From assembly GCF_058153355.1 (NCBI RefSeq), contig NZ_CM177019.1: 64,000 nucleotides of DNA. The stretch is one strand, 5' to 3'. The translations under genes were made by a program, and so were the position numbers. This document shows positions 1 through 46,328 of this stretch, piece by piece. The notes under the pieces were generated by a model. It saw only the letters and a program-made list of their open reading frames with translations. It was not told where the DNA came from and searched no databases. Within the stretch, counting starts at the first letter, position 1. Every line of letters begins with the position of its first letter.

Positions 1-890
1 AGGAACATCAGGTACATCACAAAGAGGAAAATCGGCAGACCGAGGAAACGGTTGAGCACGATTTTATCTACCGCAGTGGTGAAACGGCTGGGTTCTGCCG
101 TCAGGGTGTTGCTTACCACATCACAGATGGCAGCAATGCACTGGTAACGCGCATCGGCAATGTGCAGCGCCGGATCGTCCATCTCATTACGCAGACGGGC
201 GAGGGCGGCATCAAGATGCTGCGACGCTTCACCGGCGTAGGCGCGGCTGTAGATATCGCCTTCCAGCATTTGCAGGCCCAGCCAGCGACGTTGTTTCAGC
301 GGGATGTCGGAAGGCATCACTTTTGCCAGTGAATCTGCTTCGTTGAGCAGCGGCTGTGCGTAATGCACCAGTTCCACATTCTCGTTAGCTTTATAGCGAT
401 CAATCGCCAGCTTGAGCGCTTCAATACCGCGACCACGAGTTGAAACCAGCGGGATCACCGGGCAGCCAAGACGCGTCGACAGAGCATCAATTTCAATGCG
501 AATATTTTGCTTCTCGGCAATGTCGAGCATGTTCAGCGCCACGATGCAGGGAATGCCGAGTTCCAGCAGTTGTAGCGTCAGGTACAGGTTACGCTCAAGG
601 TTAGACGCATCCACCACGTTAATCAGCAGGTCAGCGTCGCCACTCAAAATGTAGTGACAGGCGATTTGCTCATCGAGCGAGGTCTGCGATGAGATGGTGG
701 TCAGAGAATAGGTGCCGGGGAGGTCCACCAGCGTGACCTGATGATCGGTGGTGGAGAATTGCCCTTCTTTACGTTCGACGGTAACGCCAGCCCAGTTACC
801 TACACGCTGACGTGCGCCAGTGAGCTGGTTAAATAAGGTTGTCTTGCCAGAATTTGGATTACCAATTAAGCCAATGGTTAATTTTTTCAT
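1..890 (-). CDS. feoB: Ferrous iron transporter FeoB, N-terminal GTPase portion (partial; gene continues beyond window start)
   Basis: Reverse-strand translation from ATG at complement(888..890) reads MKKLTIGLIGNPNSGKTTLFNQLTG... (G-protein P-loop), matching the remembered FeoB N-terminus. The ORF runs off the window edge so it is not in the ORF track. Confidence 0.9.
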   Translation of the reverse strand, partial: MKKLTIGLIGNPNSGKTTLFNQLTGARQRVGNWAGVTVERKEGQFSTTDHQVTLVDLPGTYSLTTISSQTSLDEQIACHYILSGDADLLINVVDASNLERNLYLTLQLLELGIPCIVALNMLDIAEKQNIRIEIDALSTRLGCPVIPLVSTRGRGIEALKLAIDRYKANENVELVHYAQPLLNEADSLAKVMPSDIPLKQRRWLGLQMLEGDIYSRAYAGEASQHLDAALARLRNEMDDPALHIADARYQCIAAICDVVSNTLTAEPSRFTTAVDKIVLNRFLGLPIFLFVMYLMF

Positions 891-1134: not shown

Positions 1135-1242
1135 AGGTGCCTACTTGTTTCTCATTAACTGGATAACTACCTCATGGGGCGTTTGACAGCGACATGAGAC
1201 CAGATGATTTGCCAATGAAGGAGAGATTAAATAATCAACAAC

Positions 1243-1263
1243 ACAATGATAATGAGAATGGTT
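1243..1263. promoter_or_regulatory. Candidate Fur box in the feoABC promoter region
   Basis: caatgataatgagaatggt contains GATAAT/ATCATT-like hexamers resembling the Fur consensus GATAATGATAATCATTATC. feo is known to be Fur-repressed. The exact site is not verified. Confidence 0.35.
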
Positions 1264-1323
1264 TCTATCAGCAATACTTAAAATGTGTGCGAATGTTGGT
1301 TTGAATAATAATCTGACTCAATG

Positions 1324-1337
1324 TTGATGTGGCTCAA
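1324..1337. promoter_or_regulatory. Candidate FNR site (TTGAT-N4-CTCAA) upstream of feoA
   Basis: TTGATgtggCTCAA matches 9 of 10 positions of the FNR consensus TTGAT-N4-ATCAA. feo is known to be FNR-activated. Confidence 0.4.
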
Positions 1338-1466
1338 GGTTATATCGCAGCGAAAATATAATTCGAATAGCGAATTACCAGGACTGGTTAATGTTTAATT
1401 AAGGTTTCATTTGTTAATGAAGTGATAAATATTAACGGGATATATTGTGAGTTTGGTTGTGGAATA

Positions 1467-1497
1467 AAAGTGCCGGAGATATTCTCCGGCACTTTTA
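1467..1497 (-). terminator. Intrinsic terminator downstream of tex
   Basis: Inverted repeat gtgccggagat/atctccggcac flanked by A and T runs (aaaagtgccggagatattctccggcactttt). Confidence 0.6.
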
Positions 1498-1500
1498 TGT

Positions 1501-1550
1501 CAGGCAAGGCGTTCGTTGCCAGATGCGGCGTGAACGCCTTATCTGGCAGG
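1501..1550. repeat. REP (repetitive extragenic palindromic) element
   Basis: gccagatgcggcgtgaacgccttatctggc matches the classic REP consensus core GATGCGGCGTGAACGCCTTATC. Confidence 0.7.
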
Positions 1551-1573
1551 TTTACGTTTGTCTATCAGGGCGT

Positions 1574-4468: not shown

Positions 4469-4695
4469 CTCGTTGATTCCCTTTGTCTGTTTGATAATGC
4501 GCACATTGGGTATAACGTGATCATATCAACAGAATCAATAATGTTTCGCCGAATAAATTGTATACTTAAGCTGCTGTTTAATATGCTTTGTAACAATTTA
4601 GGCTGAAATTCATACCAGATTTAGCTGGTGACGAACGTAAGCTTTTTTAAGAATACACGCTTACAAATTGTTGCGAACCTTTGGGAGTACAAAGA

Positions 4696-44682: not shown

Positions 44683-44696
44683 TTGATGTAAATCAA
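44683..44696. promoter_or_regulatory. FNR binding site of the nirB promoter (TTGATgtaaATCAA)
   Basis: Perfect FNR consensus half-sites, centred about 65 bp upstream of the nirB ATG, consistent with a -41.5 class II site. Confidence 0.8.
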
Positions 44697-46067: not shown

Positions 46068-46328
46068 GATTGGCCTGCGTTCAAAAATAAAATGGCATAG
46101 CGGGCTATGCCGCGAGCGGGCGATTTTAGGTGATTTTGTGATCTGTTTAAATATTTTATTGCAATCGGTTGCTAAATTGCATTTTAAGAGGTGATTTTGA
46201 TCACGGAATAAAAAGTGATCGTCAGGTTACATATATTTCAGATACGTAAAATTAGGTAAAGGGATGGCCTTGTTCTTGAAGGCTATTTAGAATCTCTTCA
46301 CTTGCTTTTTTTCTGCTCTGTTTGTTAA

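Follow-up and report, generated by a model that had tools for sequence, protein, structure and literature searches.

The DNA between the feoA start codon and the yhgF/tex terminator (positions 1135-1462, minus strand, of the window, as we call the whole 64,000-nt stretch that was analysed) is, with high confidence, an Escherichia coli feoABC promoter region and functionally the same as that of K-12. The feoABC control region is already characterised, and there is nothing new in its motifs. The additions made here are descriptive: the region is read on the minus strand, its FNR site lies distally at about -91 with a fixed spacing to the promoter, a second Fur box adjoins that site, and further upstream there is an ArcA/OmpR site with a one-base change.

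Locus and identity to the K-12 feoABC promoter

The window opens within feoB (890 to 1) and continues with feoA (1134 to 907), both on the minus strand (Table 1). Because feoB starts at 890 and runs past the start of the window, feoC lies outside it. The FeoA protein is 100% identical to Escherichia FeoA. Upstream of feoA and on the same strand lies yhgF/tex (3895 to 1574), followed by greB and ompR-envZ. Since feoA is on the minus strand, its control region corresponds to window positions 1135-1573 and reads from right to left, and position -n relative to the feoA ATG is window position 1134+n.

A 721-nt query over this region matched feoA, feoB and yhgF in 5,425 of 5,426 complete E. coli genomes, and 3,930 of the 5,425 E. 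coli records match its 111-nt core (window 1235-1345) with at least 99% identity. For comparison with K-12, the MG1655 sequence NC_000913.3 3539300-3540500 was aligned to the window; at the feo locus, U00096.2 and NC_000913.3 are offset by 1,978 nt. The window and K-12 differ by only 2 nt between about -250 and the ATG, both of them in the leader (-68/-67). About ten further substitutions fall between -330 and -250, besides one base in the ArcA/OmpR site, and in the REP region beside the yhgF terminator the window is 17 nt shorter than K-12 (gaps of 3 and 14 nt). The K-12 promoter feoAp, with its FNR, Fur, ArcA and OmpR inputs, has in common with the window the FNR 14-mer, the 34-bp Fur ChIP-exo sequence and the -10 and -35 hexamers, as well as the gene order yhgF-feoA-feoB.

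Conservation beyond E. coli was assessed by a FeoA-based scan that yielded 80 loci from about 80 Enterobacteriaceae species. Their upstream sequences were aligned with those of the window and K-12 using MAFFT (82 sequences), and conservation is expressed as the fraction identical to the window (Table 1). The FNR half-sites and the Fur/-10 block (0.94-0.97) are the best-conserved islands, with flanks at 0.4-0.5.

Table 1. Coordinates of the feo genes and control elements in the window, with conservation in the Enterobacteriaceae alignment
Feature	Window	Strand	Promoter position	Remarks	Conservation
feoB, 5' part	1..890	-		ATG at 890-888; RefSeq annotation of matching E. coli records	
feoA CDS, 75 aa	907..1134	-		ORF list; annotated feoA in matching genomes	
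feoA 5' leader, ~105 nt	1135..1240	-		K-12 TSS to ATG	0.51
Proximal Fur operator	1239..1272	-	-32..+2	equals K-12 Fur ChIP-exo footprint	0.84
Fur 19-mer of the preliminary description	1244..1262				0.94
-10 hexamer TATCAT	1246..1251	-	-11..-6	5/6 to consensus	0.97
-35 hexamer TTGCTG	1269..1274	-	-34..-29	3/6 to consensus; 17-bp spacer to -10	0.83
RstA/OmpR-like motif CCAACATTCGCACACA	1284..1299	-	-59..-44	just upstream of -35	~0.7
Second (upstream) Fur box	1304..1322	-	-82..-64	centre 1313 (-73); adjoins FNR site	0.54
FNR site TTGAGCCACATCAA, palindromic type	1324..1337		centre -90.5/-91.5	centre -196.5 from ATG	left half-site 0.92; right half-site 0.93; N4 spacer 0.59 (18 variants in 80 paired sequences)
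Region -276..-204					0.41
ArcA direct-repeat site TTGTTAATGAAgTGATAAATA	1411..1431	+	-191..-171		0.72
yhgF/tex intrinsic terminator GTGCCGGAGAATATCTCCGGCAC + TTTTATT	1463..1492	-		hairpin 1470-1492 + T-run; read from sequence	

Core promoter, leader and upstream boundary

A single feoA transcription start site (TSS) has been mapped in K-12 (Park et al. 2013, PMC3798270). Since the ArcA site is placed at -191 to -171 from this TSS, +1 corresponds to U00096.2 3538079, which is -106 from the ATG and window position 1240. Derived indirectly in this way from a supplementary table, the K-12 TSS falls on a T and thus may be 1-2 nt off; transcription in the present strain would start at the equivalent position. 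Both hexamers, -10 and -35, are highly conserved and suitably spaced from the published TSS. A generic sigma-70 scan (at least 9/12 in total and at least 4/6 per hexamer) returned no promoter in the feo region, because the -35 hexamer scores only 3/6 and TTGCTG-17-TATCAT only 8/12. Such a weak -35 hexamer is what one would expect of a promoter that depends on an activator. There were no sigma-70 ChIP peak coordinates near feoA among the matches listed, and no feoA entry in the supplement text of Kim et al. 2012.

A structured leader or riboswitch was considered and rejected, as the fold of the 116-nt leader is no better than that of its shuffles (z = -0.28). An Rfam search of the region gave no hit above gathering, only sub-threshold matches to the REP-derived naRNA4 at 1471-1548. 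Upstream, the feo control region is bounded by the yhgF terminator, which the generic terminator scan did not list, though it is plain in the sequence. Beyond this terminator lies one REP-like element (1511-1548; naRNA4 at 36.6 bits against a gathering cut-off of 59.5), just upstream of which K-12 carries the 17 extra nt together with several substitutions.

A distal FNR site at a fixed distance from the promoter

The preliminary description had placed an FNR motif upstream of feoA, and its coordinates are exact: TTGATGTGGCTCAA lies precisely at window 1324-1337 and is the reverse complement of the K-12 site. It agrees with TTGAT-N4-ATCAA at nine of ten half-site positions. In a symmetric position weight matrix (PWM) built from the 62 ChIP-bound sites in Table S6 of Myers et al. 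2013, with feoA excluded, the site scores 15.57 bits, compared with a training median of 15.54. By this matrix it ranks second in the 64-kb window, where 0.24 matches of its score are expected by chance (Markov-1 random sequence), and the probability of such a score is 0.006 per random 439-nt stretch of intergenic composition. The K-12 site, at U00096.2 3537982 (to 3537995), has a published PatSer score of 14.6 and an ln p of -13.13, which passes the threshold of -10.75 (Myers et al. 2013, PMC3688515, Table S6), and it is flagged as falling at an FNR ChIP-seq peak whose centre is 3537996 (PMC3688515, Table S5). Reading the palindrome as a CRP site was set aside, because TTGA/TCAA half-sites with a 4-bp spacer are of FNR type and ChIP-seq assigns the site to FNR.

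Two further FNR sites known from K-12 are present in the window. The best PWM match in the 64 kb, TTGATGTAAATCAA at 44683-44696 (20.9 bits), is the reverse complement of the K-12 nirB site, and the third best, GTGATTTTGATCAC at 46191-46204 (13.5 bits), is the reverse complement of the K-12 ppiA/tsgA site (both in Myers Table S6). They are 1,508 nt apart, which is also their spacing in K-12. Between the feoA and nirB sites there are 43,359 nt here but 46,021 nt in K-12, so about 2.7 kb must be missing from the window at some point between the two.

Relative to the promoter, the centre of the FNR site is at -90.5, or at -91.5 if the adjacent G is +1, figures that could shift by 1-2 nt with the TSS taken from Park et al. 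Table S6. In almost all loci of the Enterobacteriaceae alignment, the best FNR-PWM match upstream of feoA is the orthologous site, and across the paired sequences its TTG and TCAA hardly vary. Of the 82 sequences, 79 have the ATTCTCATTA core 70.5-71.5 nt from the FNR centre; this count includes nine apparent spacings of 76.5-77.5, an artefact of the repeated hexamer, which shifts the register by 6 nt. The exceptions are one locus with a distance of 61.5 and two Cedecea loci without such a pair. In the same 82 sequences, between about 52 and 138 nt separate the promoter core from the ATG. Thus, with a fixed spacing to the core and a variable leader, the FNR site is tied to the Fur-overlapped promoter and not to the start codon.

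Two groups depart from the E. coli layout. In Enterobacter, Leclercia, Lelliottia, Silvania and their relatives (loci L039-L041, L047, L055, L059, L062, L068, L071, L072, L075-L078 and L080), the core lies at about -54 instead of about -120 from the ATG, which shortens the feoA leader by about 70 nt; the spacing between the FNR site and the promoter is unchanged, and the FNR site is TTGAGCAAGGTCAA. The two Cedecea loci (L069 and L079) have no FNR site at the conserved spacing. What they carry instead is a near-perfect FNR palindrome of 21 bits (TTGATCTAAATCAA / TTGATTTAAATCAA), about 370-380 nt upstream of feoA, which may belong to another promoter.

An FNR site at about -91 is uncommon, as most FNR-activated promoters are of class II with FNR at -41.5, a spacing that does not hold here relative to a TSS at window 1240. 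One may argue that FNR instead works by class II activation on another, FNR-dependent promoter further upstream, whose start would be found some 41.5 bp downstream of the FNR site (about 1289), and that the Fur-overlapped promoter is a second and independent one. Besides conforming to the usual FNR arrangement, this would parallel the proposal for the feo locus of Yersinia pestis, in which an upstream promoter over an Fnr-like site accompanies a downstream Fur-regulated one, and Fur bound downstream of that start site could serve as a roadblock. However, the sequence at the required -10 position (1296-1301) is AACCAA, whose conservation is just 0.1-0.6, and on this ground a class II FNR promoter was rejected. 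The nearest good hexamer, TATTAT at 1305-1310, would put FNR at about -33, a non-activating position. The constant distance to the TATCAT core (79 of 82 sequences agree to 1 bp) and the single mapped TSS of Park et al. also argue against an upstream promoter, and the Y. pestis authors themselves report no significant similarity of the promoter region to that of E. coli. We therefore regard a class II promoter as quite improbable and retain a distal FNR site serving the Fur-overlapped promoter.

The Fur operator overlapping the promoter

A Fur-box-like motif had also been described at 1243-1263. A Fur site is indeed present there and coincides with published K-12 sites, but the string in question, CAATGATAATGAGAATGGT, is located at 1244-1262, one base shorter at each end, and does not keep the register of the 19-bp Fur consensus GATAATGATAATCATTATC, matching it as it stands at only 5 of 19 positions. 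This frame was accordingly rejected; moving it by 2 or 4 nt gives the proper ones. The in-register 19-mers lie at 1242-1260 (13/19), 1248-1266 (13/19) and 1254-1272 (12/19), 6 nt apart, which is the typical pattern of overlapping dimers, and a 7-1-7 core at 1247-1261 matches at 10 of 14 positions. Consensus models and published scores were both used for Fur. By consensus count, a match of at least 13/19 does not exceed chance: its probability in AT-rich random DNA is about 0.20, and 23 19-mers of the 64-kb window reach that level.

The proximal Fur site is accepted not on this count, but on the basis of published matrix scores, ChIP-exo data for the identical K-12 sequence, its position over the core promoter and its conservation. 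In K-12, Fur ChIP-exo peak P104 (3538047-3538080) is assigned to feoA and is found in iron-replete cells only (Gao et al. 2023, PMC10164565, Dataset 2); according to the same paper, it was also present in the earlier study of Seo et al. The peak converts to window 1239-1272, or -138 to -105 from the ATG, and the sequence is identical. In addition, an information-theory model gave two overlapping K-12 Fur sites, of 13.4 bits at 3538065 and 10.9 bits at 3538059 (Chen et al. 2007, PMC2189734), and these convert to window centres 1254 and 1260. The footprint overlaps the core promoter and takes in the -10 hexamer TATCAT, and coverage from -32 to +2 fits promoter occlusion.

That this block is conserved merely as a core promoter (-35 to +1), with its resemblance to Fur boxes arising by chance in AT-rich DNA and iron control being indirect, might be argued from a consensus match of just 13/19 (P about 0.2) and from its coincidence with a -10 hexamer and spacer that would be conserved for promoter function anyway, yet it is extremely improbable given the 34-bp ChIP-exo footprint exactly there in iron-replete K-12 cells only, the 13.4- and 10.9-bit sites in 6-bp phase under a calibrated information-theory model, the published Fur-dependent repression of feoA-lacZ, and the about 95% conservation of the 17-bp spacer, which promoter function alone would not constrain. 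The block is thus best read as a Fur operator laid over the promoter. Both motifs of the preliminary description, FNR and Fur, clear the matrix thresholds and coincide with mapped K-12 feoA sites, and its view that feo is under anaerobic (FNR) and iron (Fur) control holds, as the sites are identical to K-12 sequences bound in vivo.

Another K-12 Fur ChIP-exo peak, P103 (3534739-3534772; found in both iron-replete and iron-starved cells), converts to window positions of about 4547-4580 in the greB-ompR intergenic region, where a scan with the 19-bp Fur consensus found no match of at least 13.

A second Fur box, ArcA/OmpR and other upstream elements

Two elements absent from the preliminary description lie further upstream. 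The first is a second Fur box, which corresponds to a K-12 Fur site of 10.5 bits at 3538006 (Chen et al. 2007, PMC2189734); Kammler et al. had annotated two Fur boxes, and each is covered by one of the clusters of Chen et al. (PMC2189734). It matches the consensus at 11 of 19 positions, and the K-12 Fur ChIP-exo data have no separate peak for it (PMC10164565).

The second is the ArcA site, equivalent to K-12 TTGTTAATGAAATGATAAATA at 3537888-3537908 (Park et al. 2013, PMC3798270, Tables S3, S4 and S6). It overlaps an OmpR-binding motif, TTATCAcTTCATTAACA, on the other strand, and a fragment with the motif overlapping the ArcA site was shifted by OmpR in an electrophoretic mobility shift assay (EMSA) (Gerken et al. 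2020). One base of the ArcA/OmpR site differs between the strains, at window 1422, where K-12 has AAATGATAA ('a') and the window AAGTGATAA. A Fur-like 7-1-7 match (11/14) at 1423-1437 also overlaps this site and has a chance probability of about 0.08.

Closer to the promoter, CCAACATTCGCACACA has been proposed as an RstA/OmpR-like box, and the small fragment carrying it gave no OmpR shift in EMSA (Gerken et al. 2020); the Salmonella RstA site may be its counterpart. Between the ArcA and FNR sites, a block at 1385-1404 (minus strand CCTTAATTAAACATTAAC) is about 0.7 identical across Enterobacteriaceae. Judged by eye, its GTTAA/TGTTT repeats are reminiscent of further putative ArcA half-sites. 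At a larger scale, two anaerobic H-NS ChIP-chip regions of K-12, 3538104-3538618 and 3537506-3537770 (Myers et al. 2013, PMC3688515, Table S3), convert to window positions of about 701-1215 and 1549-1813, one on each side of the FNR/Fur promoter core.

A model of feoABC regulation

Published genetics have established that FNR and ArcA activate feoABC and that Fe2+-Fur represses it. Fur-dependent repression of feoA-lacZ is visible only anaerobically, when the promoter is active, and in iron-replete medium Fur masks the effect of FNR on feoABC. Consistent with this, feo showed no FNR-dependent expression change under iron-replete conditions, which was ascribed to Fur (Myers et al. 2013, PMC3688515).

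In the arrangement proposed here, a sigma-70 promoter (TTGCTG, 17 bp, TATCAT; +1 at about 1240) would drive feoA transcription, giving a leader of about 105 nt. When iron is sufficient, Fe2+-Fur on the overlapping, 6-bp-phased sites (-32 to +2) would occlude RNA polymerase. Holding the [4Fe-4S] cluster that it assembles only in the absence of O2, FNR would bind TTGAG-N4-ATCAA about 91 bp upstream of +1 and activate from this distal, class I-type position, presumably via the C-terminal domain of the RNA polymerase alpha subunit (alpha-CTD). It would act together with ArcA-P, and possibly OmpR, bound at -191 to -171, and a weaker second Fur box lies between the FNR site and the -35 hexamer. ArcA and FNR reportedly antagonise Fur repression at feoABC in part, a result credited to Beauchene et al. 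in 2017.

The nearly constant spacing of the FNR site and the position of the second Fur box between it and the -35 hexamer invite a more speculative reading, in which Fur and FNR would compete sterically (direct anti-activation or anti-repression) instead of being two independent inputs. As a separate matter, the base change at 1422 might shift the anaerobic or osmotic set-point of ferrous uptake. We consider these ideas unlikely, and the work of Beauchene et al. may already include part of them.

Comparison with other known systems

Class I promoters of the CRP/FNR family have their activator at about -61.5, -71.5, -82.5 or -92.5. The feoA FNR site at -90.5/-91.5 would lie on the same helical face as the position at about -92.5, and its spacing to the core promoter is likewise fixed across species. 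Contact with the alpha-CTD is only presumed for feo, and most natural FNR activation is of class II. Unlike a simple class I promoter, feo has a weak Fur box in between and ArcA/OmpR sites further upstream, which suggest co-dependence.

With classical Fur-repressed promoters such as fhuA, fepA-fes and iucA, feo shares overlapping, 6-bp-phased sites over the -35 and -10 hexamers and occupancy under iron-replete conditions (from K-12 data). In contrast to these promoters, it is a poorer match to the 19-bp consensus (13/19), and repression of its lacZ fusion by Fur is seen only anaerobically.

The feoABC locus of Y. pestis, with two putative promoters, resembles that of E. coli in having a Fur site on the downstream promoter P2 and Fnr-like and ArcA-like motifs upstream. 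However, feo in Y. pestis is not controlled by Fnr, ArcA or RstAB, and iron repression is absent there aerobically, whereas the E. coli promoter is iron-repressed; the two regions are reported to lack significant DNA similarity.

Conclusions

For annotation, the value of this analysis is that the strand, coordinates and register of the feoABC control elements are now fixed and that elements missed in the preliminary description have been added. Control of feoABC by FNR, ArcA and Fur is the established switch by which anaerobic cells turn from ferric to ferrous iron uptake.
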